Source: Myxococcales bacterium LLY-WYZ-16_1
Lineage (GTDB): Bacteria; Myxococcota; Kuafuiibacteriia; Kuafuiibacteriales; Kuafuiibacteriaceae
Direction of reading: 5' to 3'
Assembly: GCA_031800475.1 (NCBI GenBank)
Contig: DAPKRQ010000278.1
Coordinates: forward strand, 1-58,999
Length of the DNA stretch: 58,999 nucleotides
Part shown: positions 1,470 through 58,852 of the stretch, piece after piece
Numbering within the stretch: position 1 is the first letter of the stretch
How the letters are laid out: the number at the start of each line of letters is the position of its first letter
Translations under genes and position numbers: made by a program
The notes under the pieces: generated by a model
Told to the model about the DNA's origin: nothing
What the model saw: the letters and a program-made list of their open reading frames with translations, nothing else
Database searches by the model: none

Positions 1470-2426
1470 TCAGGCGCTCGCAGTCTTCGGCCGGTCGCGG
1501 AGCGTCTTTTCGATGAACAGCTCGCCGGCCCGGTACGAGGAGCGGACCAAGGGGCCGCTGGCCACGTAGCCGAATCCGAGCTCCCGGGCGCGCTCGGCGT
1601 AGCGGTCGAAGGTGTTCGGATGCACGAACTCCACCACTGGATGGTGTTTGCGGGTGGGGCGCAAGTATTGGCCAAAGGTGATGATGTCCACGCCCACCTC
1701 CCGAGCGTCTCGCATGGCCTGCTCGATCTCCTCGGCGGTCTCGCCCAGTCCGACCATCAACGAAGTTTTGGTCAGCAGCTGGGGCTTCTTTTCTTTCGCC
1801 CACCGGAGCACGTCCAGGCTCTGGGCGTAACTCGCCCGCGGATCCCGGACTGTCGGAGTGAGGCGCTCCACGCACTCCAGGTTGTGGGCCAAGACGGCCA
1901 GGGGGGCGTCGACCACCTTTTGCAGGGCGTCGGGGTCTCCCTGGAAGTCCGGGATCAGCATTTCCAGCAGCACGTCCGGGTTTTGGGCTCGGATGGCCCG
2001 AAGACACTCGGCCAGGTGGCCTGCACCTCCATCGGGCAGCTCGTCCCGGTTCACCGACGTGAGCACCACGTAGCTGAGCCCCATGGCGTGCACCGCGTCG
2101 GCCACGTTCTGCGGCTCTTCCGGGTCCAAGGCTGGCGGACGCTTGGCCGTGTTGACGGCGCAGAAGCGGCAACCTCGGGTGCAGGTGTCGCCCATGAGCA
2201 TGTAGGTGCCCGTACCGATGCTCCAGCACTCCCCGATGTTGGGGCATTGGGCTTCTTCGCAGACCGTGGCGAGCTTCAGATCCCGCGAGCGCCGTTTGAG
2301 GGCCGCATACTTCGGGCCTCCAGGTGCCCGAACCCGAAGCCACGGGGGCTTGCCCCGGCCCTCGCGGCCGATCGGGCCCGTTGGTTGGCCGTTTTCGTCT
2401 TGAAGAATCGGCAGTCGATCCCGCAC
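1470..2426 (-). CDS. lipA: lipoyl synthase (radical SAM)
   Basis: CEEAQCPNIGEC and CTRGCRFC motifs, GQYLRPT, SGPLVRSSYRA. Start (GTG 2426) approximate. Confidence 0.95.
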   Translation of the reverse strand: MRDRLPILQDENGQPTGPIGREGRGKPPWLRVRAPGGPKYAALKRRSRDLKLATVCEEAQCPNIGECWSIGTGTYMLMGDTCTRGCRFCAVNTAKRPPALDPEEPQNVADAVHAMGLSYVVLTSVNRDELPDGGAGHLAECLRAIRAQNPDVLLEMLIPDFQGDPDALQKVVDAPLAVLAHNLECVERLTPTVRDPRASYAQSLDVLRWAKEKKPQLLTKTSLMVGLGETAEEIEQAMRDAREVGVDIITFGQYLRPTRKHHPVVEFVHPNTFDRYAERARELGFGYVASGPLVRSSYRAGELFIEKTLRDRPKTASA

Positions 2427-2551
2427 GCCCCGACCGCTAACAACCTCGGACGTCGGGTACCAGCACAAAGGCGGTTCACGCCTGGGGCCCCGGCTTCGCT
2501 CAGCCAGCGCCCCTCGGTGCGGCAGATGGGGAGGGGGGCCTTTGGAAAGCT

Positions 2552-2589
2552 CGATGGGTGCCCCGGGGTCACGACCCCGGGGCCCATCG
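2552..2589 (-). terminator. GC-rich hairpin downstream of dnaK
   Basis: gccccggggt-cacg-accccggggc, extended by cgatgg/ccatcg, ~35 bp past the dnaK stop. Only a short U-tract follows. Confidence 0.45.
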
Positions 2590-2622
2590 CCGTGGGGGAC
2601 CGGCCCCGGGGCCGGTCCGAGC

Positions 2623-4548
2623 TCAGTTCGCCTCGGACCAGTCGGCGTCGATGACGTCGTCGTCCTTTTTCTGTTCGGACGCGCTGCCCCCGCCGCCCGC
2701 CGAGGCACCACCGGCGCCGCCGTCCGACGGCGGCTGCTGCTCGTCGGCGGTCTGCTTGTACAGGTGCTCCGCCATCTTGCCGGAAGCCTCTTTGAGCTTC
2801 GTCTCTGCCGCATCCCAGGCCGAGGCGTCGTCCTTCTTGAGGGCTTCCTTCGCCTCCTCCAGGGCGGTCGAAACCTCTTGGCCCAGCTCCACCGGCAGCT
2901 TGTCCTTCGCGTCGTTCATGGTGCGCTCTACCTGATAGACCAACTGGTCCAACTGGTTTCGGCGCTCCACCTGCTGCCGGCGCTTTTCGTCCTCGGCCTC
3001 GTTCTTCTGGGCCTCTTCGACCATCTTGTTGATCTCGTCTTCGTTGAGGCCGGACTGGGCCTCGATGCGCACGGACTGCTCGCGCCCGGTGGCTTTGTCC
3101 TTGGCCGAGACCGACACGATGCCGTTGGCGTCGATGTCGAAGGTTACCTCGATCTGAGGCATGCCCCGGGGCGCCGGCGGAATCCCGTCGAGCACGAACT
3201 TGCCGAGCGTCTTGTTGTCGTTGGCCATCTTGCGCTCGCCCTGAAGCACGTGCACCTCCACCTGACTCTGGTTGTCGGCGGCGGTGGAGAACACCTCGGA
3301 CTTTCGGGTCGGGATGGTCGTGTTCCGCGGAATCAGGGTGGTGAACACCCCGCCCAACGTCTCGATGCCCAGGGACAGCGGGGTTACGTCGAGCAGCACG
3401 ATGTCCTTCGCTTCGCCCGTCAACACACCGCCCTGAATGGCCGCACCCACCGCGACCACCTCGTCCGGATTCACCGAGCGGTTCGCGTCCTTGCCGAAGA
3501 ACTTCTTCACCTCTTCCTGGATCAGCGGGATGCGGGTCGAGCCGCCGACCAGCACCACTTCGTCGATCTCGCGAGGCGACTTCTTGGCGTCCTCGAGGGC
3601 CTTGCGCACCGACTCGAACGAATTCTGCACCAGGTCCCCGACCAGGGCTTCGAACTTGGCCCGAGACAGCTTGAGCTGCAGGTGTTTCGGGCCGCTTTGG
3701 TCCGCGGTCAAGAAGGGCAGGTTGACTTCGGTCTCGAAGGCGCTGGACAGCTCGATCTTCGCCTTTTCGGCGGCGTCCTTCAGGCGCTGCATGACCATCT
3801 TGTCGCCGGACACGTCGATGCCTGTGTCGCGCCGGAACTCGTCGATCAGCCACTTGATGATCCGCTGGTCGAAGTCGTCGCCGCCCAGGTGCGTATCGCC
3901 GTTGGTCGACACCACTTCGACCACGCCGTCTCCGACCTCGAGGATCGAAATGTCGAAGGTCCCGCCGCCGAAGTCGTAGACCGCGATGATCTCGTTCGTC
4001 TTTTTGTCGAGTCCGTAGGCCAGGGCCGCCGCCGTCGGCTCGTTGATGATCCGCTGTACGTTGAGGCCCGCGATCTTGCCCGCGTCTTTGGTGGCTTGGC
4101 GCTGGGCGTCGTTGAAGTAAGCCGGCACCGTGATCACCGCTTCGGTCACTTCTTCGCCCAGGTGGGACTCGGCGGCCCGCTTCAGCTTCTGCAGCACCTT
4201 GGCGGAGATTTCGGGGGGCGCGTAGCTCTTGCCCCGGATCTCCACGTGGGCGTCGCCGTTCGACGACTTCGTGACTTTGTACGGCACCCGTTCGGTTTCG
4301 GTTTCCGCGTCCTGGAACTTCATGCCCATGAACCGCTTCACCGAAAACACGGTGTTTTCTGGGTTGGTGATGGCCTGCCGCTGGGCGGCCTGGCCGACTA
4401 GGGTTTCACCCTTTTCCGTCCACGCGACCACCGAAGGGGTGGTGCGCGAGCCTTCCTCGTTGACGAGGACCTTCGTCTCTCCCGACTCCATGACCGCGAC
4501 CACGGAGTTGGTGGTGCCGAGGTCGATGCCGATGACTTTTTTTCCCAT
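2623..4548 (-). CDS. dnaK: molecular chaperone DnaK (Hsp70)
   Basis: [32 protein letters not shown]-terminal DDDVIDADW. True start ATG 4548. Confidence 0.98.
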
Positions 4549-4741: not shown

Positions 4742-4851
4742 ATGGCCGATCGGGAACGGAGCGTTCGGTTTGACAGAGTCTTCGGGAGCGCTATACCCGT
4801 CCGCCAATTCCGGCGCGGGCGCCGTCCCACGCCGTGACTCGAGGGCAAAAC

Positions 4852-6858
4852 ATGAAAACGGGAACTCTGTTCGGATACCTGATCGCGGCGGCCATCGGCT
4901 TCGGCGTCGGGTTTGCCGTCAAAGACAGTCGAGACGGGACCTTGAAGGCGGAGGCGAAGAAGCCTCCGGAAGCGGCCGAGCCGAGCGAGGCCCAGGCGGC
5001 CGCCAAGCCCAAGCCCAAGGCGAAGGCGGCCGGCGCCAAAGACGCGGACGTTTTCAAGGTGCCGGTCGGCGACAGCGTCCAAAAGGGGCCGGACGACGCC
5101 CTGGTGACCATCGTCGCCTTCTCCGATTTTCAGTGCCCCTTTTGCTCCCGGGTGCTGCCCACCCTGACGAAGGTCGAAGAAAAGTACGGCGACGACGTCC
5201 GGATGGTCTTCAAGCACAATCCGCTTCCCTTCCACCGGCAGGCGCCCCTCGCCCACGAATACGCCCTGGCCGCGGCCGAGCAGGGGAAGTTTTGGGAGAT
5301 GCACGACAAGCTCTTCCAAAATCAAAAGGCCCTGCAGCCCGATGACCTCGAGAAGTACGCCGAGGAGGTGGGCCTCGACCTGCAAAAGGTCGAAGCCTAC
5401 CTGGAGTCCGGCAAGGGCAAGAAGGTCATCGCCGAAGACCAAAAGCTCGCCCGGCAGATCGGCGCCACCGGCACGCCGTCGTTTTACGTGAACGGGGTCA
5501 AGATCGCTGGAGCTCAGCCCTATCCGAAGTTCGAACAGATCATCGACGCCCGAATGGCCGTGGCCAAAAAGGCCCTCGAAAAGGGCGTGCGCCGCTCGGG
5601 CCTGTACGCTGCCCTGATCGAGGACGGGCGCACCAGCCCGCCTCCCCGTCCCAAGCGAAAGCCCCGAAAGCAGCCTCCCGCCGTTCGACAAGAGGTGGCT
5701 CTGTCGGACGCCACCCCGACGAAGGGCGCCGACGAGCCGCTGGTCACGATCGTCGAGTTTTCGGACTTTCAGTGCCCGTTCTGCGCCCGGATCAACCCAA
5801 CCATCGACCAGATCCTGAAGACCTATGGCGACGAAGTGCAGGTCCGGTTTCGAAACCTGCCTCTGGGCTTTCACCAGCGCGCCGAGCCGGCGGCCCGGGC
5901 GGCGCTGGCTGCCCACGCCCAGGGCAAGTTCTGGGAGATGCACGACAAGCTCTTCGCGAACCAGCGCGCCCTGCAGGACGACGACCTGAAGAAGTACGCC
6001 GAGGAACTGGGGCTCGACGTGGCGAAGTTCGAAGAGGACATGGCTGCGGAGGCGATCAAAAAGCAGGTGCAGGCCGACATGGCCGCAGCCCGCAAGTATG
6101 GCGCCCGGGGTACGCCCACGTCCTTTGTCAACGGGGTGCCGGTCCGGGGGGCCCAGCCGTTCGCCCGCTTCAAGGGTCGCATCGACTCGGAGATCGAGCT
6201 GGCCGAAAAGCTGATCGAAGAAGGGGTGAAGCGTTCCGAGGTCTACGCCGAGATCCTGAAGCGCGAGGCCGGAAAAGCCCCGGACGGCGGGGAAGCGCCG
6301 CCGCCGGCGGCCAAGCCGCAACCCGAAAAGGAGGAAAAGCCCGTCGACATCGAGCTCGGGAAGGCTCCGCTGCAAGGAGACGAAGACGCTCCAGTCAAGG
6401 TGGTCGTCTTTTCCGACTTCGAGTGTCCCTTTTGCGGTCGCGTCAATCCGAGCATCGACAAGCTCAAGGAGGAGTACGGAGACAAGGTGGCGGTGGCCTT
6501 CAAACACTACCCGCTCCCGTTCCACCAAAACGCTCGCCGGGCGGCGATCGCGAGCTTGGCCGCCCACCGGCAGGGCAAGTTTTGGCAGATGCACGACAAG
6601 CTGTTCGCAAACCAGCGGGCCCTGAGCGAAGACGACATTCGGGGCTACGCCGAAGAACTCGGGCTCGACATGGACGATTTCGAGGCCGACATGGACGACC
6701 CGGAACTCGAGGCCTGGGTCGACGCCGACATGAAAGAGGGTCGGGGCTTTGGCGTCACGGGCACGCCGGCCACGTTCATCAACGGCCGGAAGATCGTGGG
6801 AGCCCAGCCCTATTCCGCCTTCAAAAAGAAGGTGGACGAAGTCCTCTCCGAGTCCTGA
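4852..6858 (+). CDS. membrane-anchored protein with three DsbA/thioredoxin-like domains
   Basis: N-terminal hydrophobic anchor. Three repeats of FSDF(Q/E)CPFC...GKFW(E/Q)MHDKLF...GTP..(Y/F)(V/I)NG..I/V.GAQP. Confidence 0.9.
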
Positions 6859-7097
6859 CGCGGTCTCCTACCCGTCGGCCCATCCGAGCCCCTCACCCTG
6901 AAGTTTCGCCGAGCTCGCCCACGCTGCCCGAATGCCCTTGGGGGCGCTCGACCCGGCGAACTGGGGGTTCATGGGGGCCCATCCCACGGCATCGCCGACG
7001 CGCGGCTTGCACACCCGGGCAGCACCGCTCCCCCGTCCGCGCAAACCGTTCGGCAGCCTTCCAAGTCGGGGACAGATGCGAGCACCGACTCCGAAGT

Positions 7098-7409
7098 TCA
7101 GTCGCGGGACAGGGGGGCGGGTTCGAAGACCACCCGCCCGTGCGCGTCGAGCTGCTCCAGCAGGTCGGTCTCGCTGGCCGGGGCGGGACACGCGAAGGGC
7201 GCCGGTTCCGGCTCGACCGACTCGATTTCGGCCGTCACCCGCCCCGTCAGCGGAAGCGACGGCGTCCGCGCCGACAGCCCCGCCACGGACTCGGTCGAAG
7301 TGTCTCCCCAACGGGCCAACAGCACGTGTGCGACGAAGAAGATGATCGTCGCCAAAGCGGGGGACACGAACCACACGCCGGGGGCCGGTTCGCTCGGACG
7401 GCGCAGCAT
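7098..7409 (-). CDS. hypothetical single-TM protein
   Basis: ATG 7409, hydrophobic stretch VWFVSPALATIIFFVAHVLLA. No recognised family. Confidence 0.4.
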   Translation of the reverse strand: MLRRPSEPAPGVWFVSPALATIIFFVAHVLLARWGDTSTESVAGLSARTPSLPLTGRVTAEIESVEPEPAPFACPAPASETDLLEQLDAHGRVVFEPAPLSRD

Positions 7410-7588
7410 GTTCGTGTGATTTAAGGCATGGATTTCGGAAGTGTCGAGCCCCGAAGTGGATACCGCGCACAACCGATCGATGGAGCGCACTCCCTGCGGC
7501 CCGGATCTGCCGAATTTTCCCCGAGTGGGCCCATGAATCCGGGTGCGGAGCGGCCCCCACCGTCCGCTCGAGGCCGTTCGGCTCGAGG

Positions 7589-8347
7589 TCATCCGATCCG
7601 GGCCAGACCCAGGAGGGTGCCGGTGGCCGGGCTCGCCAGATGGATCGGTTCGCCGGACGCGGGTCTCCATCCACGACACAAGCCCTCCAGCTCGATGCGG
7701 CCCACTTCTCGGGACTGGACGACCGGCGCGCGCTCGGCCGTGCCTCGGTCCCAGTCCAGTCGACCGAGGATGCGCCGGACCCGGACGTCGGCGCTTCCCG
7801 ACAGCCCATGGGCGAGCAGTGTTTGGCCGGGCGTCAGGGGCTGCGGACCGATCCACTGGACCGACACCGGGTTTGGGCCATCTTTTGCCGGCTCGACCGA
7901 AGCCATCGATACGGATGCGCACCAGTCGGTCACCAGACGGGGCCCGGTGTAGCCGTCGGGATGGAGGCGGTCGGACTCGGGCGCCGGGCGCACGGGAAAG
8001 ACCCAGGTCGGGCCCAAGCCGAAGTTCCGCAGGGTCGCCTGCACCCGGGTTTCGCTCCAGTCGAATTCGGAGCGACGGCTCCGCCGGGGCAGCAAGACCG
8101 CCGTGGGCAGCCCGAGCCACCCCAGAAGCGACAGACCTGCCGGGACGCCGAGCCCGGGACGGGTGACCTGGGCCACCACGACCGCCGCCCGGGCCCGAAA
8201 GACCCCGTCCACCCACGAGGACGTTTCCGGACGACCGCAAGATGGAGCGCCTTGCTGGCCGCATACGGCCGCAGCGCGGAAGGCCCGCGCCACCGCCTCC
8301 CGCACGCTCCGGGTTCCGGGCGAGCCCAACACGACCACGGCGTTCAT
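7589..8347 (-). CDS. degenerate CysN-like protein (sulfate adenylyltransferase subunit 1 C-terminal domain-like)
   Basis: ATGA overlap with the cysH stop. C-terminus (QWIGPQPLTPGQTLL...RRILGRLDW...EVGRIEL...TLLGLARI) resembles CysN domain III. No GTPase motifs. Confidence 0.4.
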   Translation of the reverse strand: MNAVVVLGSPGTRSVREAVARAFRAAAVCGQQGAPSCGRPETSSWVDGVFRARAAVVVAQVTRPGLGVPAGLSLLGWLGLPTAVLLPRRSRRSEFDWSETRVQATLRNFGLGPTWVFPVRPAPESDRLHPDGYTGPRLVTDWCASVSMASVEPAKDGPNPVSVQWIGPQPLTPGQTLLAHGLSGSADVRVRRILGRLDWDRGTAERAPVVQSREVGRIELEGLCRGWRPASGEPIHLASPATGTLLGLARIG

Positions 8348-9069
8348 CCGACCTCCTGCAACCGGGAGCTCGGATGGGCGGTGTGAAGGCCGCATTCTTT
8401 GTGCTCGGGCCGTTCCCACCACCAGCGCCCGGCCCGTTCGTCCTCGCCTTCACGGACGGGGCGCGTGCACGGGGCGCAGCCGATGGAGGTGTAGCCCCGC
8501 CCGTAGAGCGGATGGATCGGCAAGCCTCGACGCTCCACCTCGGACCGAACCTGGTCCAGGGACCAGCGGGCCAACGGATTGATCTTCCAAGGTCCAGTGG
8601 AGTTCGGTTCGACCACCTGCAGGTCGGACCGGGTCACGGACTGGGCCCGCCGCTGTCCGGTGACCCATGCCCGGACGCCGGACAGGGCCCGATTCAAAGG
8701 CTCCACCTTGCGCACGGCGCAGCATTCGTGTCGATCTTCGAGACTGTTTCGGAACGAATACAGGCCTTTGGTGCGTTCGAGTTCTTCGACCGCTACCCGT
8801 TCGGGAAACTGCCACTCGATCTGGATTTCGAGCTTTCTCTGGACCGCGTCTGCGGTCCAGTAGGTCTCTTCGGGCAGGCGGCCCGTATCCAGCGAGAAGA
8901 CCCGAATGCCGGGCTCGACTTCCACGGCCATGGCCATGAGCAGCACGTCCTCCATGCTGAAGCTCGAAGCCACCACCAACTCGGGATGAAACCGCCGCAC
9001 CGCCTCGCGGAGCACGGCTCGGGGATCGTCGAAGTCGACGGCCCAGGCGGACTCGGGCTGGGGACTCAC
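8344..9069 (-). CDS. cysH: APS/PAPS reductase (Fe-S APS-reductase type)
   Basis: LDTGRLPEETY, ECCAVRKVEPL, TGQRRAQS, SIGCAPCT, RAGRWWWE, KECGLH. GTGA overlap with cysG. Confidence 0.92.
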   Translation of the reverse strand: MSPQPESAWAVDFDDPRAVLREAVRRFHPELVVASSFSMEDVLLMAMAVEVEPGIRVFSLDTGRLPEETYWTADAVQRKLEIQIEWQFPERVAVEELERTKGLYSFRNSLEDRHECCAVRKVEPLNRALSGVRAWVTGQRRAQSVTRSDLQVVEPNSTGPWKINPLARWSLDQVRSEVERRGLPIHPLYGRGYTSIGCAPCTRPVREGEDERAGRWWWERPEHKECGLHTAHPSSRLQEVG

Positions 9070-10553
9070 GATGCCAATCCCTCCAAACGAGCCGGTGTTT
9101 CCGGGGACCCAAGGGTCTGCGCGGCCGAAACGACCCAGCCGAACACCAAGACGGCGGGTGCCTGAATCCGTGCCTGGGTGAGGGTCGTTTCGAGCGAAGC
9201 CAGCTCGGTGGTCACGACCCGCTCCCCGGGTTGGTTGGCCCGCTCGATGGCGGCGACCGGCAGATCCTCGGGATAGCCCGCGTCGCGCATGCTCTCCCGG
9301 ATCTGGGATGCGCGCCCAACGGCCATGAGCAGAACCACGGTCTGCTGCGCTTGGTAGGGGGGAACGGCGACCGAGCTTCCGTGGGCACCTTGGCCCGTTC
9401 CGACGACGAAGCGATCGGCCACGCCGCGCTGCGTGAGGGGGACGCCGGCGGCCAGCGGTGCACAAAGGGCGCTCGACAGGCCGGGCACCACCTGCACGCG
9501 CAGTCCGGCGGCCGTGAACCGCTGCAGTTCTCCGGCCGCTCGCCCGAACACGAAGGGATCGCCTTGCTTGAGCCGCACCACGCGGCGACCCGCCGTCGCC
9601 GCTTCCAAGACCCAGTCCTCCAGCTCCTGTTGGGCGGCGCCGGATCGGCCCGGGAGCTTGCGGGCGATGCGAAGCTCTCCGGGGACGCGCTCCAGGATTT
9701 CGGGGGACACCAGACGGTCGGCAACCACCAGATCGGCGGCGCGAAGCACGTTCCAAGCCCGAAGCGTGAGCAGCTCCGGATCGCCGGGTCCCGCGCCGAC
9801 CATCCAGACCGTATCGGTTGGGGCCGTCTCGGCGGCACCTTGGGGCACGGGCTGTTTCGGCGGGGGTTCGGGCGGAGGCCCGCCGGCGGCGTAGCGGTCC
9901 ACCAGGCGGTGGACCGAAGCCTCGTCGAGCCGCGCCAGGTCCGAAAAGGTCCAGTTGCGACCGACCTGTCCGAGCCACTGCATGCGGCGCGGGCTCGATT
10001 CGGGGGCGGGGTCGGCTCTTCGGATCGCGCTTCGAAGCTGGCCGAAGCGCTGCACCGCCTGACCGAGGCCGTCCGGCAGGGCGTCGGCCAGACTGCGGAT
10101 CAACCGGCTCGCGATGCTCGGACCCTGCCCATTGGTCGACACGGCGACCTGAACCGGCCCCTCTCGATGGACCGACGTGAACCAGAAGTCGCACAGGTCC
10201 GGGACGTCGGCCACGTTCACCGGGATCCGAGCGGCCCGGCACAGGCCCGCGATGCGCAGGCTTTCGTCCGGGTCGTCGATGGCGGTCATGACCATGGACG
10301 CCCGGTCCAGGTCCCCGTCGGCGAAGGGGCGGGGCACCCAATCGATCTCCCCCCGTTCGTGCCGCCGCCGGAGCTCCGCACCGAGGTCGGGGGCCACCAC
10401 CCGCACCTGCCCGTCGGCCTGAAGGGCCAGCCGGACCCGGCCGGCGGCCACGGGCCCACCGCCGACCACCAGCACCCGCTGGCGGTCGACCCGCCAGGCC
10501 AACATCAGGGAACCCCCGCCTTGGATCGGCGAGATCTCCGGGGTTCGACTCAC
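9066..10553 (-). CDS. cysG: siroheme synthase (precorrin-2 dehydrogenase/ferrochelatase fused to uroporphyrinogen-III C-methyltransferase)
   Basis: VLVVGGGPVA, VNVADVPDLCDF, then VGAGPGDPELLTLRA and RLKQGDPFVFGR. Confidence 0.9.
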   Translation of the reverse strand: MSRTPEISPIQGGGSLMLAWRVDRQRVLVVGGGPVAAGRVRLALQADGQVRVVAPDLGAELRRRHERGEIDWVPRPFADGDLDRASMVMTAIDDPDESLRIAGLCRAARIPVNVADVPDLCDFWFTSVHREGPVQVAVSTNGQGPSIASRLIRSLADALPDGLGQAVQRFGQLRSAIRRADPAPESSPRRMQWLGQVGRNWTFSDLARLDEASVHRLVDRYAAGGPPPEPPPKQPVPQGAAETAPTDTVWMVGAGPGDPELLTLRAWNVLRAADLVVADRLVSPEILERVPGELRIARKLPGRSGAAQQELEDWVLEAATAGRRVVRLKQGDPFVFGRAAGELQRFTAAGLRVQVVPGLSSALCAPLAAGVPLTQRGVADRFVVGTGQGAHGSSVAVPPYQAQQTVVLLMAVGRASQIRESMRDAGYPEDLPVAAIERANQPGERVVTTELASLETTLTQARIQAPAVLVFGWVVSAAQTLGSPETPARLEGLAS

Positions 10554-10664: not shown

Positions 10665-11444
10665 TCAGGCGGGGTGCTCGCCGCTTTCGTGGGAGCGAAT
10701 GGCCCACTTCCACAGCACCATGTCCGGCACCGGGAGGGCCAAAAACAGGTGCTCCAGCACGGCCAGGGCGAGCATGGTTGCCACCAGACTGAGGCCGATG
10801 GCCTCGAATCCTCCGGTGGGCGCCGACATGGCCCGGCCGGTCAAAAAGCCGACCACGCCAGAGCCCACCCCGACCGAGATGGGCATGAGCGGATTCAGGT
10901 CGGCCTTTCGAAAGTAGCTCTTCAGGTAGGCCAGGTGAGGAGGGATGATCTCGACGGCCAGGTTGCGCACACCCCAGAAGATGTTGAACTTCGCGCTGAT
11001 GCGCATGGTCCAAAGCACCCACAGGGTCATCGTCCCGACCTGATTCGGGCCGTTCCAGGTCAGCGCCACCACCGCGGCCAGCGTGGCGGCCAGCGCGACC
11101 TCGTGATGGATCACCGTCTCGGTCGCGCAACGAAATCGCTCGAACCCCCGGGCGCCGGGGGGGCAAGCCGTCTTGCGGGGACCCGTGATCAGACCCATCA
11201 AGAACGTGAGCTCGTGCCACCCCCAGACCACCACGGCCGAGCAGAACGCCACGTAGGCGCCGAACACGGTGTCGTCTGCGCTGCTGACCGCCAATCCATA
11301 GACCGCCGCCAGCCCCGCCACCGTGGTGAGCGCCAAGCTGACGCGAAACGTCCGCGGGGGAAGACCGTCGATGTAGATCAGCACACCGGTGCTGAACCAC
11401 CACAGGAACATGGCGGACGCGGAAGCGAGGACGATGTCGACCAT
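10665..11444 (-). CDS. puhE: photosynthetic complex assembly protein PuhE
   Basis: LWWFSTG, WGWHELTFLMG.ITGPR, RISAKFNIF.GVRN, ALLEH-like AVLEHLFL motif. Position after acsF. Start could be GTG 11459. Confidence 0.9.
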   Translation of the reverse strand: MVDIVLASASAMFLWWFSTGVLIYIDGLPPRTFRVSLALTTVAGLAAVYGLAVSSADDTVFGAYVAFCSAVVVWGWHELTFLMGLITGPRKTACPPGARGFERFRCATETVIHHEVALAATLAAVVALTWNGPNQVGTMTLWVLWTMRISAKFNIFWGVRNLAVEIIPPHLAYLKSYFRKADLNPLMPISVGVGSGVVGFLTGRAMSAPTGGFEAIGLSLVATMLALAVLEHLFLALPVPDMVLWKWAIRSHESGEHPA

Positions 11445-11452
11445 CGAGGTGC

Positions 11453-12541
11453 TTACCACGCCGGCTGAAGCCGGCTCGTCTCCGGGAGGGTGTTCTTCTT
11501 GACCGGCAGGAAGTACAGCCGCGCGAATGTGGCCACCGCCTGGGCCTGCAGCCCGAGCACCTTCACCCGGTTCCACAAACCCCCTTTCCGCTTGGCATCG
11601 TCAATCTTGGTGGCGATTCGAACCATGCGGTCCAGATTCGCTTTGAACGCGGGGTTGTCCAAGTCGAGCAAGACCGGAAAGACCTGCTTGCAGATCTCGA
11701 GAGTGATTCGAAAGACCTGCATACCGTATTCGCTCGGATCGATTCCCAAAGCCTCGTGGAAGGCGTGCCGATGGTGATCGCGCACGTACATGGTGGCAAA
11801 GACGGCGAGCTGGAAGAATCGAATCCAGAGCTTGTTGGTGCCCTGGAGAAGCTTCGGATTGGCCCGCATCAACAGCGCGAAGGCCTCACCGTGCCGGAAT
11901 TCGTCGTTGCACCACTCTTGGAACCACTTGAAGATCGGGTGGAAGCGATGCTCCGGGTTCCGCTGCAAGTGCCGGAAGATGGTGATGTAGCGGGCGTATC
12001 CGATTTTCTCGGACAGGTAGGTCGCGTAGAAGATGAACTTCGGGCTGAAGAAGGTGTACTGCTTCGACCGGGTCAAAAAGCCCAGGTCTACGCCCATGTC
12101 GAAGTCCTTCAGACTGTCGTTGATGAACCCCGCATGCCGAGCTTCGTCCCGGCTCATGTACTTGAACAGGGCGCAGATGTCCGGGTTGGTGCCGCGCTTG
12201 CGCATCTCCGCGTAGAGCACGCAGCCCGAAAACTCGGCCGTCAGGGAACTGACCAAAAAGTCTAGGAACTCCTTCTTGAGATCCTCATCCAATTTGGACG
12301 TGTCCAGATCCCACTCTTCGGTTCGCTTGAAGTGACCCTTATTTGGGTCGCTGGCCATTTCGGCGATCAGCTCGTCCCATTCGGCCCGCACCGGACTGAC
12401 GTCCATGCGGTCCAGTTCGTCATAATTGGTCGTGTAGAACCGCGGACTCAACACCGTGGTCTCTTGCGCCTTTTGGGTGCTGGCGTTGACGTTCTTTTCG
12501 GTGCGATGTCGGGGCTTCATGTCGAGTTCGGCGATGGTCAT
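11453..12541 (-). CDS. acsF: aerobic Mg-protoporphyrin IX monomethyl ester cyclase
   Basis: [48 protein letters not shown] di-iron motifs. Confidence 0.97.
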
Positions 12542-12840
12542 AGCGTTCTCCGTTCCGTGAAGCTCACGTCGAGCAAATCAAGGCACTCCAGGTTGCCGAC
12601 GAGTTTGGTCCACTGGCGCTCGAGCCAGTTGGCTCGAGTCACCGTGGCCGTCCGACGCTCCACCACCCGCTCTCCGAAGGGCGGGTGGATCGGCCGGCCG
12701 TGGATCAGAACCTGATCGCCAGGTTCCATCTGAATGCCCCCGTCCAAATCGACGTGGGCATGAAGGCTTTCGAAGGTATGCGAGACGTCGACGGTACAGC
12801 CGGTCTCGAAGACCCGTCGGCGCAGCAGATTCCAGTTCAC
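12538..12840 (-). CDS. conserved small PGC protein between puhC and acsF
   Basis: [29 protein letters not shown]...FGE...[15 protein letters not shown] pattern. Translationally coupled on both sides. Confidence 0.8.
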
Positions 12841-13325
12841 GGTGTGCCTCCATTCATCGCCTGCTCGGGGCCCGAGGGCGCGTCCAGCAGGCGAGCGAAA
12901 CTATCGAGGTTCGTCGGACCAAAGGCGTTCAGGTAGACGACCCGGTCCGTGGACGGGTCGTGCAAGGACAGGCGCCCGTCGGCCCAGTGCGTGAGGGTGT
13001 ACGGGGCATCCGGCTGTGCGCCTTCGAGCATGCGCTGCCGGTCCATACCCCGCACGACCCCCCAGATGAAGCCCTGAGAGCCCATTTCGAACTCCGCGAT
13101 CAGGGTGTCGGACCGACCTCGATACACGGCGATGGAACCGTCCGGCCGTTCGTCGAACCGAACCTGGACCGCCTGCACCGGTTTCGTGTCGGGGACCTCG
13201 ACCACCCCGTAGCCCGTGGTGCGGGCCACCGCCACGATCCCGATGGTGAACAGGATCAAAGCGCCGGCTGCGACCAGCACGCCCTTCGGAAAGGGTCGGT
13301 TGCCATGTGGATCCGACATGTTCAT
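12837..13325 (-). CDS. puhC: photosynthetic complex assembly protein PuhC
   Basis: FPKGVL + TM, GFIWGVVRGM.RQR, DGRLSL.DPST, LNAFGPTN. Confidence 0.92.
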   Translation of the reverse strand: MNMSDPHGNRPFPKGVLVAAGALILFTIGIVAVARTTGYGVVEVPDTKPVQAVQVRFDERPDGSIAVYRGRSDTLIAEFEMGSQGFIWGVVRGMDRQRMLEGAQPDAPYTLTHWADGRLSLHDPSTDRVVYLNAFGPTNLDSFARLLDAPSGPEQAMNGGTP

Positions 13326-13350
13326 CTACTCCTTCGTCCATTGCGTTCGG

Positions 13351-14019
13351 TCACGCTGACGCGAACCCGGCCATGGGGTTCGGAGTCGAACGCTCCGACG
13401 ATTCACTTTCGACCGAAGATGCGGCTGCGGCAGTCTGCTGATCATGGGCTTCGCGAAGGGCGTCGCCCAGCAGCTCCGCCACCTTTTTGCCCTCTGGAAC
13501 GCACCGCATCATCGGCTGCGTGGGGTTGTACTTCCACGGCCGGGTGTGAGGCCACAGATGCAAGAAAGCGAGGTTGCCCGTGCCGGCCATCTCCAGCGGA
13601 ATCTCGCCCGCACCGCTTTTGTCCGGCTTGAACAGCGCCGACTTCACCTGTTTGAAAGGCAGGTTGACCGCCATGGTCAGGGCGATGCCGTACCGAAGCA
13701 CCACGCGCCGGTTCGTGATCGTGTAGATCGTGGTCCGTGCGTTCCAGTAGGCCAAGCCGACCAGTACGGCCACCAGGACCACTCCGACCGGAACGAGCGA
13801 CAGGGAAGCGAGGACGGCGCCTCCGAGGGTCGCGCCCTCGGAAGCGGCAACCAAGCCTCGCACGACCACCAGGGCGGCGAAGTAGAACGCCGCGGCTCGG
13901 GCGTGAAACACCCGGCGGGCCATGACTTTCCAGTCCGGCTGGCCCTGCCACAGAATGTACTCACCTGCCGGAAGCAGCTCCGGCAGACCTTCGATCGGTT
14001 CGTATTCGAATTCTTTCAC
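13351..14019 (-). CDS. puhB: photosynthetic complex assembly protein PuhB
   Basis: EPIEGLPELLPAGEYILWQGQP, TIYTITNRRVV.RYGIAL, LWPHTRPW...PQPMMR-like segment. Confidence 0.93.
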   Translation of the reverse strand: MKEFEYEPIEGLPELLPAGEYILWQGQPDWKVMARRVFHARAAAFYFAALVVVRGLVAASEGATLGGAVLASLSLVPVGVVLVAVLVGLAYWNARTTIYTITNRRVVLRYGIALTMAVNLPFKQVKSALFKPDKSGAGEIPLEMAGTGNLAFLHLWPHTRPWKYNPTQPMMRCVPEGKKVAELLGDALREAHDQQTAAAASSVESESSERSTPNPMAGFASA

Positions 14020-14786
14020 AGCAGCGGCCCCATCCGGGAAGCCTTCCCGTACAGCTTTCCTCCGGCGAAGAACGCCTGGATCTTCTCTTCTTCGAGTATG
14101 GTCACCTGGTCCGCCTTGGCGAGGCGCGGAACCTTCGGAAAGTGCTCCGACATCAGGGCTTGGACATGAACGTACTTCTTCTTTTCACCCTGAATCCGAA
14201 GCATGGTGACGGGGATCAGTACGTTGGATCCGCCCTGCAGCGTCGCCTCCAGGTAGCGCACCTGGTTTTCGCTGCGGTCGACCCAGATGTCCTTGATTTT
14301 GCCGACCGACTTCTTGTCGCCCGCAAACACCTCCATGCCGCGGGGATCCTCCTTTTGCTTGGCCACGTCGTACTCGTTGCTGGCCCTCAGAGGCATCAAC
14401 GCGGGTTTGCCGTCTCGGGTGAGCTCCGGTTCGTCGTGACGTTCCGCCCAAGAGGCCGGGCCGACGCCGTCGACCATCGGGTCTCCGGTGGGCTCATACG
14501 GTGATCCAGGCCATGGCGCGACCCGCTTGATCTTGTGGTTGCGGGTGTCCCGCTTGTCGTTTGGAGCGAAATAGCTTCCACCCTCGGGGAGCTTGTACTC
14601 CTTGGGCTTCGCCATCAGGATCTTGTTCTTCTTGCCGACCTGTCCGGTGAGGTCGGTCTCCAGCGGATAGCCTTCTCGCCGATCCTCCCGGCGGATGTAG
14701 AAGACCAAGCCCGCGAAGAAGAGCCAGAAGATATAGAGTGTGACTTGAGCGACGTCGATGTAACCTGTGAGTGCACCCGTAGGCAT
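14016..14786 (-). CDS. puhA: reaction centre H subunit
   Basis: GALTGYIDVAQVTLYIFWLFFAGLVFYIRREDRREGYPL, PTGDPMVDGVGPASWAER, PRC barrel, TILEEEKIQAFFAGG.LY. Confidence 0.97.
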   Translation of the reverse strand: MPTGALTGYIDVAQVTLYIFWLFFAGLVFYIRREDRREGYPLETDLTGQVGKKNKILMAKPKEYKLPEGGSYFAPNDKRDTRNHKIKRVAPWPGSPYEPTGDPMVDGVGPASWAERHDEPELTRDGKPALMPLRASNEYDVAKQKEDPRGMEVFAGDKKSVGKIKDIWVDRSENQVRYLEATLQGGSNVLIPVTMLRIQGEKKKYVHVQALMSEHFPKVPRLAKADQVTILEEEKIQAFFAGGKLYGKASRMGPLL

Positions 14787-14807
14787 CTTGAACTCCTTTG
14801 GCTGGAA

Positions 14808-16241
14808 TCAGCCAGGCAGCTCGGCCAATCCGAACCGCGATGGGGATCCTCCCGGATCCTTGAAACGACGAACGAGCGGTCCGATCGCGACCAGCGACGC
14901 GAACAACAGCCCGATTTCGATGTGGTAGACGACACAATATCCCGCCGCTGGACCGGTGAGGGCGGGGCCCAGGTATCCGCGCGCAGCCAGGTCACCCAGC
15001 ACGTCCCGGATCGCTCCACCCATGGCCAAACCTCCGCCGGCGGCTGTGGCTTGCACGGCTCCCCAGGCTCCGAGAGCCAGGCCGCTCCCACCGGTCTCGG
15101 ACAGTCCCATGGCAGCGGTCAGTGTACCCACTGCGAACAACCCGCCGCCAAAGCCGATGAAGAAGGTCCCGGCTCGAAACAGCAGGACCGAGTTCAGGGG
15201 ATCGGCAAAGATCACCGCCGAGAACGCCCCGATCCCCGCGAGAGCGCCCATGGCAGCCAGAAAGAACGGATCGTGGTCGCGGCTCAGTGCTCGAGCCGCG
15301 AGAGCCAGGCCCAACAGCGTTCCCCCCGCCAAAATGGCCGTCAAGAAAGTCGTGTCCGACACCGACAGGTTCAGCACCTCGCCGCCGTAAGGCTCGAGCA
15401 AGATGTCTTGCATGCTGAAGGCGGCGGTGCCCAAACCGACGATCACCAAGAGGCGACTCGCTTTGCCGCCGGCCGAAAACTCTGCCCAGGACTCGGCGAA
15501 GCTGGGTCGAGGCCGGTCGGGGGCAGTCCGGCTCGGGTCTCTCGCTTCCTGCTTCCACAAAGCGACTGCGTTGAGCACCAGGGTCAGACCGGCAGCGCCT
15601 TGAATGACCTGAATCAGCTTGACGGATCCGAAGTCGGCCAGGAGCACCCCGAACGCCAGCGCGCTTCCCAGCATGCCGACGAGCAGCATCACATACAGGA
15701 GTGCAACAACCCGAGGCCGCGAGTCCTCCGGTGCGTTGTCGGTGGCCAAGGCCAGCCCGGCGGTCTGGGTGGTGTGCAGGCCGATCCCGGTCACCAAGAA
15801 GGCGACGGCCGCGCCGATCTCTCCCGCCAACGGCGGGGCGTTCACGGCGTCGCCCGACAGGATGAGCAGCGCGAAGGGCATGATCGACAGGCCCCCGAAT
15901 TGAAGCATCGCGCCCAGCCAAATGTACGGGATGCGCCGCCAGCCGATGACCGAAGCATGATTGTCCGATCGAAATCCGACCAGAGCTCGAAACGGGGCGA
16001 AGAGCAGAGGCAGGGACACCATGGTGGCCACGAGCCAGGCGGGGATGCCCAGCTCGATGATCATCACCCGGTTGAGGGTTCCGTTCAACAGAACAGTGGC
16101 CATGCCCACCGAAATCTGGAACAGGGACAACCGCAAGAGCCTTCCGAGCGGCAGCTCGTCGGTGGCCGCATCGGCGAACGGCAGCAGGCGTGGGCCCACC
16201 TTTCGCCAAGCGCGGACGATGCTGTCGTTCCAGGTCTTCAT
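14808..16241 (-). CDS. lhaA: LH1 assembly protein LhaA (PucC/BCD-family MFS)
   Basis: LPFADAAT.ELPLGRLLRLSLFQ, GTLNRVMIIEL, MQDILLEPYGG. Lies between bchM and puhA. Confidence 0.92.
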   Translation of the reverse strand: MKTWNDSIVRAWRKVGPRLLPFADAATDELPLGRLLRLSLFQISVGMATVLLNGTLNRVMIIELGIPAWLVATMVSLPLLFAPFRALVGFRSDNHASVIGWRRIPYIWLGAMLQFGGLSIMPFALLILSGDAVNAPPLAGEIGAAVAFLVTGIGLHTTQTAGLALATDNAPEDSRPRVVALLYVMLLVGMLGSALAFGVLLADFGSVKLIQVIQGAAGLTLVLNAVALWKQEARDPSRTAPDRPRPSFAESWAEFSAGGKASRLLVIVGLGTAAFSMQDILLEPYGGEVLNLSVSDTTFLTAILAGGTLLGLALAARALSRDHDPFFLAAMGALAGIGAFSAVIFADPLNSVLLFRAGTFFIGFGGGLFAVGTLTAAMGLSETGGSGLALGAWGAVQATAAGGGLAMGGAIRDVLGDLAARGYLGPALTGPAAGYCVVYHIEIGLLFASLVAIGPLVRRFKDPGGSPSRFGLAELPG

Positions 16242-16929
16242 GCCCGTGTGACCTCCAGCGCTTGCGAGGTATAAAAGCCTCGCTGAATCCGGCGGGTCCG
16301 GCCCGGAGTCCATCCGACCAGGGCTTCGCTTCGGTCCATTCGCCGAAGCAGGCCCCGGGCCGAGATAGGCTCGATGGCCGGGGCTCGGTCGCTTCGGGGG
16401 AACAGTCGACCGACGGCGTGCATGGCCGACAACAGAACCGTACGCGGGGCGAAGGTGAACAACACCTGGTAGGTCGAAAGTTCCGCCAATCGCTCGATCA
16501 TGCGAACCATGTCGTGGGCCTGGTAGTGGATGAGCGAATCCATGGCCACCACCCGATCGAAGTGGCCAAGGGACGGATCCATCATGTCACCCACCCGAAA
16601 GTCGATGTGGACATCGTTCGGGAGTCGCTCTCGAGCCACCCGTACCAGGTTCTCCGCCAGATCGATGGCGACCACTTCGGCGCCGCGCCGGGCCGCTTCG
16701 ACCGCCAACATGCCCGTGCCGCAGCCTGCGTCCAGGATCCGCTGACCCGACAGATCCGCAGGCATCCAGTCCAGGAGGGTCTGGCGCATCTCGTCTCGTC
16801 CAGCCCGGACCGTCGCCCGAATCCGGCTGACCGGAGCGTCCGAGGTGAGCAGGGCCCACGCCTCGGCCGCTGTCCGGTCGAAGTAGGTTTCGAGCTGGCT
16901 CCGGCGCCGCTGGTAGGAGAGGGCCTTCA

Positions 16930-16930
<1 letters not shown>
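16238..16930 (-). CDS. bchM: Mg-protoporphyrin IX O-methyltransferase
   Basis: LETYFDRTA, VSRIRATVRAGRD, LDAGCGTG, AMDSLIHY. ATG 16930. Confidence 0.96.
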
Positions 16931-17832
<902 letters not shown>

Positions 17833-17859
17833 CTACCTGCCTTTTGCTCTTTTGGAGGC

Positions 17860-23299: not shown

Positions 23300-23303
23300 C
23301 GGG

Positions 23304-25148
<1,845 letters not shown>

Positions 25149-31639: not shown

Positions 31640-31825
31640 GCGTGCTCGGGCCGGATCCCGAGCCGACCGGCCGCCCGATGGACCGGTTCGCGGGGCGGAT
31701 CGCCCCAGAGAAATCCCGCGCAAAGCAGATCGCAAAGCTGTCAGCCTGCCGGGGTTGTGATAACGCCCGGCCCGGGACGGGAGCCTCGGGCTCCCGGAGA
31801 TGGAAAGGATTCAGAGGAGACGACC

Positions 31826-37906: not shown

Positions 37907-38054
37907 GGACCGGTGCCCGTCGGCCGGAAAATCCTCCGCTTCAGTCCAGCGAAGGCGAATTTCGCGCGCCCCGCGGGGGGGCGAGCGGCACGCGACCGGA
38001 CGAGCGGATGGATTTCGGGGTGACCCGCGGCGCCGAAGCGGGCCTTCTGAACCC

Positions 38055-55863: not shown

Positions 55864-55868
55864 GACCG

Positions 55869-56513: not shown

Positions 56514-56514
56514 C

Positions 56515-57726: not shown

Positions 57727-57736
57727 AAGAAGCATC

Positions 57737-58306
57737 ATGCGTATCTCGAAGCGAAACATTTGGTCTGCTGCCGGCACCGTGGTGTTCGTGGCCGGTTGCC
57801 ATGGGCCGCTGCCGGTCAACCACGATGAACACCCGAAGTGGGTCGAGTTCCGGGACGAGCAGGAGGAGCTTCTGAGCTCCTACGCCCAGGTCGATGCAGA
57901 AGAGGGTGTGTACCAGATTCCCGTGGATCGGGCCCTCGCCATGGTGGCCGACGACCCGAGCCTGCTGGAGCCGGTGGTAGAGCCGGTGAAGGCCAAGCCC
58001 ATCGAAGAGATGACCCTGGTGGAGCGTGGTGAGTACCACTTCAACAACACCTACGTGTGCGCGTCCTGCCACGCCTTCGATGGATCCCGGAAGGTGGGCC
58101 CGCCGCTGAACGACCGGTGGGGCGAAAAAGCGCTCCTCGAAGGGGGCGAAGAGGTGGTCTTCGACGACGAATACTTCCGGGAGTCCGTGTGGTACTCCCG
58201 AAAAAAGATCGCCCGGGGCTATCCGGCCGCCATGCCCGTGTTCGAAGGCCAGATGACCGAAGAGGACTACGAGGCCATCAAGGCCTACGTCAAAACCTAC
58301 CAGTGA
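57737..58306 (+). CDS. ActG-like / monoheme cytochrome c fusion lipoprotein
   Basis: VAGC lipobox, LLSSYAQVD..EGVYQIPVDRAL (ActG-like), then CASCH..DGSRKVGP...DDEYFRESV...GY.AAMP (cytochrome c). Confidence 0.75.
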   Translation: MRISKRNIWSAAGTVVFVAGCHGPLPVNHDEHPKWVEFRDEQEELLSSYAQVDAEEGVYQIPVDRALAMVADDPSLLEPVVEPVKAKPIEEMTLVERGEYHFNNTYVCASCHAFDGSRKVGPPLNDRWGEKALLEGGEEVVFDDEYFRESVWYSRKKIARGYPAAMPVFEGQMTEEDYEAIKAYVKTYQ

Positions 58307-58411
58307 CCAGGGCGGCCGGACCGCCATCGGTTGGTCCGGCCCGACCGTCGCGGCCGGAGTTCGGCGCAGGGCGCAGCCGCGGTTTTAGCAGCACACTCTT
58401 CTGCCGATGCC

Positions 58412-58852
58412 CTACCAACTGCCCGTGTTTTGCATGCTCGCCCACGGCTCCTGGGCCGGCTGAGCTTCGCCTTTTTGAAGAAGCTCGATGGATATGCCGT
58501 CCGGCGAGCGAACGAAGGCCATCCGGCCATCCCGCGGCGGCCGCAGGATCGTCACGCCGCCGTCCTGCAGGCGCTGGCAAGCAGCGTAGATGTCTTCGAC
58601 CCGATACGCCAGATGGCCAAAGTTCCGGCCCCCGGTGTAGGTTTCCGGATCCCAGTTGTAGGTGAGTTCGAGCATGGGAGACTTGTGCTCCCGGGCTTGA
58701 GCCTCGTCTCCCGGTGCCGCCAAGAACACCAATGTGAAGCGCCCCTTCTCCGACTCCTTTCGAGAGATTTCGATCAAACCCAGCTTGTTGCAGTAGAAAT
58801 CGAGGGAAGCATCCAGATCGCTGACGCGGACCATGGTGTGGAGGTATTCCAT
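58412..58852 (-). CDS. gloA: lactoylglutathione lyase (glyoxalase I, VOC family)
   Basis: [46 protein letters not shown]. Confidence 0.92.

Follow-up and report, generated by a model that had tools for sequence, protein, structure and literature searches.

Contig DAPKRQ010000278.1 of Myxococcales bacterium LLY-WYZ-16_1 (assembly GCA_031800475.1), analyzed here over its whole length of 58,999 nucleotides and referred to as the window, contains a photosynthesis gene cluster (PGC) of the purple-bacterial type. The cluster is complete and intact and lies on a genuine contig of the Myxococcota, and its lineage appears to correspond to a published phototrophic family; the joint probability of this reading, in which expression of the genes and a working system are predicted, is estimated at approximately 0.88. 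As biology, the finding is not of a new kind: from one contig and its relatives, it confirms independently the published occurrence of an Alphaproteobacteria-derived photosystem in some Myxococcota, and the contig is sound. A more tentative proposal concerns an alternative complex III (ACIII) operon that directly follows the reaction-centre genes and that might serve the photosynthetic electron cycle.

Gene Content of the Photosynthesis Gene Cluster

Contig C278, which the window covers from end to end, is part of a 5.30-Mb genome (G000; 386 contigs, 66.7% G+C, 93.7% complete, and 1.9% contaminated). Its gene map was based on candidate open reading frames (ORFs; 62, 57, and 22) searched for Pfam and NCBIfam families. 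The PGC occupies 39 kb (10.66-49.98 kb), from puhE (10665) to pufC (49981), and consists of two blocks that diverge from 25.10-25.27 kb. It is bordered on the left by lipA, dnaK, a gene for a DsbA protein with three CPFC motifs, and cysG, and on the right by the ACIII operon and gloA. The genes of a type-II reaction centre all scored above the curated NCBIfam cut-offs, including pufL (46536-47360, forward strand; TIGR01157, 428 bits against a cut-off of 266), pufM (47379-48350, forward; TIGR01115, 508 bits against 364), and puhA (14016-14786, reverse; TIGR01150, 341 bits against 200). The light-harvesting 1 (LH1) genes pufB (46025-46249; NF040862) and pufA (46265-46453; NF040861) are located beside pufLM on the forward strand, together with pufC (48347-49981, forward; NF040706, 459 bits against 150), which encodes a tetrahaem subunit with four CxxCH motifs. 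Furthermore, the bacteriochlorophyll a pathway is clustered, as bchB, bchC, bchD, bchF, bchG, bchH, bchI, bchL, bchM, bchN, bchO, bchP, bchX, bchY, bchZ, and acsF all occur within the 39 kb. The pathway genes lead from Mg-chelatase through to esterification, and the cluster further encodes assembly factors (lhaA, puhB, puhC, puhE, and a PucC-like protein) and, with crtE and crtF, a part of the carotenoid pathway. This predicted gene set is sufficient for a reaction centre-LH1 core with a tetrahaem subunit and bacteriochlorophyll a.

The leftward superoperon (10665..25096, reverse strand) contains bchF (24584-25096), bchN (23304-24587), bchB (21542-23299), bchH (17860-21567), bchL (16930-17826), bchM (16238-16930), lhaA (14808-16241), puhA, puhB (13351-14019), puhC (12837-13325), a small ORF of 100 codons (12538-12840), acsF (11453-12541), and puhE (10665-11576). 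These genes were recognized by NCBIfam, except that bchN was assigned by Pfam Oxidored_nitro, bchM by NCBIfam/Pfam scans, and the small ORF by position, at the place where Li et al. locate bciE. The gene order of this block was identical in the related genomes G002, G003, and G004, and many adjacent genes of the PGC share start/stop overlaps of 4 bases.

The rightward block, on the forward strand, begins with an aerR/ppaA-like gene for a B12-binding protein (25267-26217; Pfam B12-binding) and ppsR (26129-27688; TIGR02040 PpsR-CrtJ, 474 bits against 275), followed by bchG (27688-28620; NF005742), a PucC/LhaA-like gene of the major facilitator superfamily (28624-29967; Pfam PUCC), and bchP (29964-31214; TIGR02023). 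Next are a gene for an iron-sulfur protein resembling high-potential iron-sulfur proteins (HiPIP; 31757..32335; Pfam HIPIP, E 2e-7), which has a twin-arginine leader with RRR near the N-terminus and a homologue of 45% identity at the matching place in G004, and a gene for an alpha/beta hydrolase assigned by family scan (32407-33324). The block continues with bchI (33443-34471; TIGR02030), bchD (34468-36291; NF009943), and bchO (36396-37307; TIGR03056), and then with crtE (38615-39511), crtF (39516-40670), bchC (40706-41638), bchX (~41635-42651), bchY (42662-44152), and bchZ (44146-45603), the last six being assigned by Pfam/NCBIfam, before the puf genes. A weak candidate for a monohaem c-type cytochrome lies between bchO and crtE on the reverse strand (37349..38164; Pfam Cytochrom_C, E 1.7e-4; one CxxCH), and small ORFs were found between bchP and the HiPIP gene and between bchZ and pufB.

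The predicted regulation of the cluster is the purple-bacterial scheme, with an intact repressor PpsR and a B12-binding AerR-like partner encoded upstream of it. The motif TGT-N12-ACA, the PpsR operator consensus known from the Rhodobacter literature, provided predicted PpsR boxes before bchI (33382), before crtE (a tandem pair at 38578 and 38604), and before bchC (40659, straddling the crtF stop). Three of the seven boxes within the span of the cluster were intergenic, and intergenic sequence makes up 4.4% of the DNA (binomial P 0.0025). A further box was located at 8745, within the 6859-10600 stretch on the left flank. The sequence-only reading of this DNA had described a proteobacterial-style gene order under PpsR/AerR control, and the family matches, as well as the PufLM and BchH trees presented below, agree with that description.

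Host Identity and Origin of the Photosynthesis Genes

A scan of named genomes with PufM yielded 597 relatives, of which the best 80 were kept (69-79% identity), none of them from the genus of the window, and the genomes behind 26 of these 80 loci were searched for host genes (10 labelled Myxococcota or Bdellovibrionales and 16 labelled Proteobacteria). DnaK of the window was 81% identical to that of two metagenome-assembled genomes (MAGs) labelled Myxococcota bacterium, 63-68% identical to the other eight of that group, and 57-64% identical to the 14 Proteobacteria with full-length matches, the remaining two providing only fragments. In the DnaK tree (34 rows), the window was placed in an 18-row clade of Myxococcota-labelled and kin rows (SH-aLRT, the approximate likelihood-ratio support, 98), and all 14 proteobacterial rows formed a separate clade (97). 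In the LipA tree (27 rows, from which four loci were omitted, two being partial and two lacking lipA), the window joined the related genome G003 and the same two named Myxococcota MAGs (99). This group is part of a set (95) that comprises three further Myxococcota-labelled rows and one Halieaceae row, and it is separate from the clades of Alphaproteobacteria (99) and of Beta- and Gammaproteobacteria (99).

Kinship data pointed in the same direction. The two named Myxococcota MAGs fell within the family-level clade of the window in the DnaK, LipA, PufLM, and BchH trees, pufLM occurred in all four other species of the genus and in 9 of 19 family-mates, and a search of the class returned only 20 genomes (G000 included), all of one family. 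Across the phylum, sampled with 401 genomes, 20 genomes contained pufLM, and these belonged to 3 of 36 family codes. By these comparisons, the host is an uncultured, non-proteobacterial member of the Myxococcota, as the sequence-only reading had supposed from the flanking genes.

The photosynthesis genes presented a different picture. In a tree of concatenated PufL and PufM (84 rows, LG+G4; 4 of 87 loci dropped for partial PufL), the window was placed in a 16-row clade (99) that comprised, besides the window, seven Myxococcota-labelled rows, seven kin rows, and one Bdellovibrionales-labelled row. An Algihabitans MAG was sister to this clade (97), and the whole was nested among Alpha-, Beta-, and Gammaproteobacteria. 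The BchH tree (24 rows; 20 of 28 returned loci used, the rest being partial or split) placed the window in a 12-row Myxococcota clade (100), separated by a short branch from Algihabitans and Salinarimonas (Alphaproteobacteria). Comparison of the two sets of markers, which the sequence-only reading had proposed as its check, placed DnaK and LipA outside the Alpha- and Gammaproteobacteria and the photosynthesis markers near Proteobacteria. Branching of DnaK or LipA within the Alpha- or Gammaproteobacteria, which that reading had given as a refutation, was not observed. This disagreement is the pattern expected of an old transfer from Alphaproteobacteria, and the sequences indicate that the PGC descends from such a transfer into Myxococcota followed by mostly vertical inheritance, which is the published scenario.

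The Algihabitans sp. MAG (locus L007) resembles the window in gene families, operon blocks, and PpsR/AerR control, and its PufM is 79% identical; in contrast, its DnaK is only 63% identical and belongs to the other clade, and no ActC match was found in that genome. Gemmatimonas phototrophica, described by Zeng and colleagues in PNAS in 2014, is reportedly another organism outside the Proteobacteria in which a complete, horizontally transferred PGC of the proteobacterial type works. It differs in representing another phylum and, as described, an independent transfer, and no Gemmatimonadota sequence was present among the 80 nearest PufM loci. Among published genomes, Algihabitans albus has been given as the nearest proteobacterial PGC in the accessible text of Li et al. 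(2023; PMC10576062).

Several records in these trees merit separate mention. Two Myxococcota-labelled MAGs, STL-MYXA1 and P01_D01_bin.40, were off-pattern in the PufLM tree. PufLM, BchH, and LipA of STL-MYXA1 (L041, L199, L225, L094) grouped with Proteobacteria, and its DnaK was located at the base of the Myxococcota clade, which suggests either that the bin is mixed or that the genes were acquired independently and more recently. PufLM of P01_D01_bin.40 (L017, on a 13-kb contig) was joined on a long branch to a Sphingomonadales row, distant from the Myxococcota clade, and this contig is possibly mis-binned. A record named "uncultured Bdellovibrionales bacterium" (L009, L091, L211, L235) fell among Myxococcota in three trees (DnaK, PufLM, and BchH) and contained an ActC of the myxobacterial type (68%), so that its label looks outdated or wrong. 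LipA of a Halieaceae MAG (locus L181, contig C312) fell inside the Myxococcota set and not with Gammaproteobacteria, as would result from contamination or transfer. G039 contains, away from its pufLM contig, a third Photo_RC match (C4, 80448-80867) that is partial (profile positions 116-259), includes an in-frame TAG, and may be the remnant of a reaction-centre gene.

Lineage and Previous Reports

Phototrophic Myxococcota are documented in the accessible text of three papers. Li et al. (2023, Nat Commun 14:6450; PMC10576062) described 32 Myxococcota MAGs with PGCs in six families and three classes, and provided metatranscript evidence as well as bchYZ from a Kuafubacteriaceae MAG that was active in Rhodobacter. 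PMC13043013 (2026) recognizes seven phototrophic Myxococcota lineages and cites a 2019 note by Cardona, and PMC12343361 (2025) adds a WYAZ01 MAG. The statement in the sequence-only reading that PGC-bearing Myxococcota MAGs had been reported agrees with these papers. Its further suggestion that the lineage or the locus architecture may be undescribed did not hold, because phototrophic Myxococcota have been in print since 2023, including the arrangement bchG-lhaA-like-bchP found in the window.

According to the accessible text of PMC10576062, this order occurs only in Candidatus (Ca.) Kuafubacteriaceae among Myxococcota, and bchE lies outside the PGC, in addition to acsF, in all MAGs of that family. 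Both traits were found in G000: the order of bchG, the PucC/LhaA-like gene, and bchP was present, as it was in G002 and G004, and bchE was located on contig C24 (40540-42021; TIGR02026, 803 bits, above the cut-off). The class of G000 consists of one family with 20 species, of which 10 are phototrophic, and with genomes of 3.9-11.6 Mb; the accessible text of PMC13043013 gives Ca. Kuafubacteriaceae as 4 phototrophic and 9 non-phototrophic MAGs, with one member of 11.9 Mb. The likeness to Ca. Kuafubacteriaceae and other phototrophic Myxococcota, as presented there, extends to the blocks bchIDO, crtEF-bchCXYZ, pufBALMC, and bchFNBHLM-lhaA-puhABC-acsF-puhE, the position of PufLM next to Algihabitans, the patchy distribution of phototrophy, and the presence of rhodopsins in some members. 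In contrast, the crt block of the window lacks crtC and crtD, which are part of crtCDEF as written in PMC10576062, and nothing essential differs. The lineage hence probably corresponds to the published Ca. Kuafubacteriaceae (class WYAZ01); the trait was already known, and light-harvesting myxobacteria that apparently include this lineage have been in print since 2023. Two microbial rhodopsin genes were detected in G000 (C21, 10891-11571; C81, 5795-6448), and they suggest dual phototrophy, just as the co-occurrence of the oxygen-dependent cyclase (acsF) and the oxygen-independent one (bchE) suggests a pigment pathway of the facultatively anaerobic type.

Alternative Explanations

A chimeric contig, in which the assembler joined a proteobacterial PGC to myxobacterial flanks, or a mis-binned one, would account for PufM (up to 79%) and BchH (68%) being as close to Proteobacteria as to other Myxococcota, and the fragmentation of the assembly and a gap in one public data set (run X2, with contig pieces on either side and none over 10060-10699, contig data being unable to prove absence) would also be compatible with it. 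Nevertheless, the order of flank, PGC, and flank was assembled independently in other species when window positions 1-16000 and 44000-58999 were compared by blastn with five kin genomes and gene orders were determined by tblastn on the fetched regions. The 52-kb contig C2 of the congener G004 mirrors the window gene for gene from the cytochrome gene after actF through dnaK, and contig C33 of G003 reads flavoprotein gene, lipA, dnaK, DsbA gene, puhE, acsF, and onward to bchH. The pufC-actA junction was crossed in all five kin genomes (G001, at a contig end, G002, G003, G004, and G005), and the PGC of G002 lies inside a 598-kb contig, at 240-290 kb. The left neighbour is variable, the dnaK block being on a separate contig in G001, G002, and G005. 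The gap between the DsbA gene and puhE measures merely ~0.6-1.0 kb in G003 and G004, and thus the stretch of 6.86-10.6 kb in the window, with unassigned ORFs and cysG, is extra in G000. Public assembled contigs compared with positions 1-20000 bridged this left junction in two other studies: runs X3 and X5 (microbial-mat metagenomes, from a study other than the possible source) each contained an ~11.4-kb contig that showed 40-42 differences over 5.9-17.3 kb. In run X9 (from sediment, sampled in a third study), a 5.0-kb metagenomic contig extended over 7044-12029 with 158 differences. The G+C content is even along the window (0.59-0.71). The chimera that the sequence-only reading had named as a possible refutation was consequently rejected on kin synteny, junction-crossing contigs, and even G+C, and it is extremely improbable. 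The relative in X9, which is 97% identical, diverges in sequence before position 7044.

It is also very unlikely, if slightly less so, that the cluster has decayed and no longer functions. The absence of crtI, crtB, crtC, and crtD from the cluster would fit such decay, but the named reaction-centre, antenna, and bch genes are all open, and those with an NCBIfam equivalog exceed its cut-off. Moreover, conservation extends to every one of these genes in four congeners (protein identity 45-87%), in keeping with purifying selection, and regulator boxes are retained at three promoters. That the host belongs to a fourth class of Myxococcota, undescribed as phototrophic and distinct from Ca. Kuafubacteria, and hence represents a new lineage, is improbable. 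In its favour, the family clade is sister to Polyangia-type rows in the DnaK tree, and not basal, and RuBisCO was not found; on the other hand, a single-family class of that size, phototrophic share, and genome range matches the account in the accessible text of PMC13043013, the gene order and the extra-PGC bchE match the traits given in PMC10576062, and Myxococcia and Polyangia are much bigger than 20 species.

Some observations weigh against an intact PGC in a Myxococcota host of a published family. The DnaK, LipA, PufLM, and BchH trees come from quick searches with SH-aLRT as the sole measure of support, a long-branch Halieaceae row is present in the LipA set of the window, and the Myxococcota labels are those of the submitters of MAGs, with no cultured myxobacterium in the set. 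The link to Ca. Kuafubacteriaceae was drawn from traits and not from a marker tree with named type material. The carotenoid genes crtI, crtB, crtC, and crtD are absent from the window, to which the search for them was confined. No match to the RuBisCO large subunit (PF00016) was obtained in the 93.7% complete G000, unlike the near-complete Calvin cycles with form I RuBisCO reported for the family in the accessible text of PMC10576062, in which absence from single genomes is allowed for. With regard to regulation, TGT-N12-ACA was not enriched over the whole window (8 boxes against 5.4 expected, with 17 of 100 shuffles reaching 8), and no exact box was present ahead of pufB, in the divergent bchF/aerR region, or ahead of actA.

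Genes Flanking the Cluster

The elements named in the sequence-only reading, among them the stand-alone dnaK, the triple-CPFC DsbA protein, ACIII, and the PGC, were all recovered by the Pfam and NCBIfam scans. At the left end, a gene for an FAD/NAD-binding, amine-oxidase-like flavoprotein (440..1675, reverse; Pfam NAD_binding_8 and Amino_oxidase, N-terminal part only) adjoins lipA, as it does in contig C33 of G003. The lipoyl synthase gene lipA (1470..~2426, reverse, start approximate) matched TIGR00510 with 401 bits against a cut-off of 310, and dnaK (2623..4548, reverse, with its ATG at 4546-4548) matched NF001413 with 1002 bits; neither grpE nor dnaJ adjoins dnaK according to the Pfam/NCBIfam scans. 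The following gene (4834..6858, forward) encodes an exported protein of 674 amino acids with three DsbA/thioredoxin domains (Pfam DSBA and Thioredoxin_4, and NF041057, three stretches each), each of which contains one CPFC (residues 101, 314, and 531). The next ~2.2 kb (6859..9065, without an assigned strand) gave no Pfam or NCBIfam match for any of the 6 frames scanned. The siroheme synthase gene cysG (9066..10553, reverse) was recognized by Pfam TP_methylase, NAD_binding_7, and Sirohm_synth_C, with 331 bits to NF007922, under its cut-off of 400. At the right end, the lactoylglutathione lyase gene gloA (58412..58903, reverse; Pfam Glyoxalase) scored 117 bits with TIGR00068, just below the cut-off of 120, and is not syntenic in G002, in which its match sits on a different contig. 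In the non-phototrophic genomes G015, G007, and G013 and in G010, no flank genes of the window were found within the 20-40 kb fetched around the orthologous ACIII. An Rfam scan of the window yielded no matches, and a tRNA scan yielded no genes.

The ACIII Operon Downstream of pufC

The gene actA starts 324 bases past pufC on the same strand, and the full set actABCDEF is present, with QrcA/B/C-like NCBIfam matches. It comprises actA (50306-51004), encoding a pentahaem cytochrome with five CxxCH motifs assigned by cytochrome family and haem motifs, actB (50992-53892; molybdopterin-like/FeS, Pfam Fer4), actC (53900-55327; Pfam NrfD), actD (55324-55863; Pfam ActD, 212 bits), actE (55869-56513; cytochrome family, monohaem with one CxxCH), and actF (56515-57726), which had no family match and was assigned by position and by its match to the place of ActF in kin operons. 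A gene for a monohaem cytochrome c lipoprotein (57737-58306; cytochrome family) follows on the same, forward strand.

G000 harbors two ACIII loci and one locus for cytochrome b, a Rieske protein, and a dihaem cytochrome c (contig C196). The second ACIII (contig C88, locus L139, 4.3-16.8 kb) consists of actA-F followed by SCO1/SenC, COX2, COX1, and COX3, with a cytochrome c domain in COX2, and its proteins are 37-63% identical to the ACIII proteins of the window. Upstream of it, on the opposite strand, a MerR-type regulator with a weak B12-binding_2 match (CarH-like) was observed; it is possible that this regulator provides a light or B12 input to the respiratory operon on C88.

In the ActC tree (a careful search with 23 of 25 loci, two partial loci being left out), the copies adjacent to pufC in genera g1, g2, and g11 formed one clade (93/96), the single copies of genera g4, g7, g8, g10, and g12 formed its sister clade (92/89), and the oxidase-linked type formed a distant clade (100/99). 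Of the 10 genomes in the family that bear a PGC, 8, from three genera, have ACIII of the PGC type after pufC, the exceptions being both g7 genomes. All 10 family genomes that bear no PGC lack ActC of this type, among them the one PGC-less species of genus g2. In G014 (C2, 963.5-971 kb; L170-L172), the ACIII operon is located inside the PGC, between pufC and bchP. Outside the family the arrangement was absent from the sample: act genes follow pufC in 1 of the 80 named PufM loci, which itself belongs to the family clade of the window, and none of the proteobacterial loci among the 80 contains ACIII after pufC, a difference from alphaproteobacterial PGCs. ActC was present in all 10 Myxococcota-labelled genomes at 52-68% identity (86% over one partial copy), and in only 4 of 16 Proteobacteria, at 36-46%. 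The former count touches on the remark in the sequence-only reading that ACIII is common in myxobacteria. On these sequence comparisons, the PGC-linked ActC is a host-derived paralogue. ActC matches with one in-frame TGA each were noted in G003 (C21, 28229-29623), G008 (C64), and G009 (C7), and may reflect sequencing errors, pseudogenes, or recoding.

Neither the main text nor supplement 1 of Li et al. mentions ACIII (Supplementary Data 2, an xlsx file, may list it), and a link between ACIII and pufC is not mentioned in the accessible part of PMC13043013. Literature searches, from whose scope subscription journals mostly fell outside, returned no paper that ties ACIII to a PGC in Myxococcota.

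A Proposed Photosynthetic Electron Cycle

In the light, the reaction centre would reduce quinone, the quinol would be re-oxidized by a quinol:cytochrome c/HiPIP oxidoreductase, and electrons would return to PufC through a soluble carrier, either a cytochrome c or the cluster-encoded HiPIP. It is tentatively proposed that the family recruited its own ACIII paralogue into the acquired PGC after pufBALMC (in one genus between pufC and bchP), gained and lost it with the PGC, and may use it as a dedicated photosynthetic quinol:HiPIP/cytochrome c oxidoreductase, leaving the second ACIII, with its caa3 oxidase genes, to respiration; the odds of this proposal are put somewhat below even. A role of ACIII in the photosynthesis of G000 is inferred from gene position only.

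The competing explanation, with a chance only a little short of one in two, is that the ACIII beside pufC is merely a neighbouring respiratory operon of the host and that the cytochrome b-Rieske-dihaem c complex encoded on C196 closes the cycle as bc1 does. The presence of that complex in G000 counts against a functional link of ACIII to the photosystem, as do the two phototrophic g7 genomes, which do without the adjacency of pufC and ACIII, and the orthologous ACIII operons that serve non-phototrophic relatives. The missing exact PpsR box before actA and a weak terminator-like hairpin between pufC and actA (50215-50232) likewise favour a mere neighbour. In 45.5-50.7 kb as a whole, a scan detected 8 terminator-like hairpins, with 4.0 expected, and not one promoter-like site, a result compatible with pufC and actA being transcribed together or separately. 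On the other hand, the adjacency of pufC and actA persists across three genera although the left flank of the cluster varies, the operon of G014 lies within the cluster, and the PGC-type ActC clade is confined to genomes with a PGC. A separate ACIII with SCO1 and COX2-COX1-COX3 is, in addition, available for respiration.

The proposed photosynthetic role of the pufC-linked ACIII finds a parallel in Chloroflexus aurantiacus, in which, according to the accessible text of PMC3150298, paired ACIII operons comprise a photosynthetic Cp and a respiratory Cr, the latter with SCO1/SenC and cytochrome c oxidase genes. Both phototrophs contain two ACIII operons, one linked to oxidase genes (C88 in G000) and the other apart from them, and in G000 the oxidase-free operon is joined to the reaction-centre operon. 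Chloroflexus, as described there, has no bc complex and no consolidated PGC and uses auracyanin as acceptor, whereas G000 keeps a cytochrome b/Rieske locus, and so does not lack bc1/b6f-type genes, and encodes a HiPIP in the cluster. If the proposal is true, the Cp/Cr division of labour would have evolved independently of Chloroflexota, and it would be the first case in which a purple-type PGC gained by horizontal transfer incorporated an electron-transfer complex of host origin. The pufC-ACIII link provides a testable proposal for the closing of the photosynthetic electron cycle, which is left open in the accessible text of the published accounts, and it may represent an example of a transferred cluster that was wired into the recipient's own respiratory parts.

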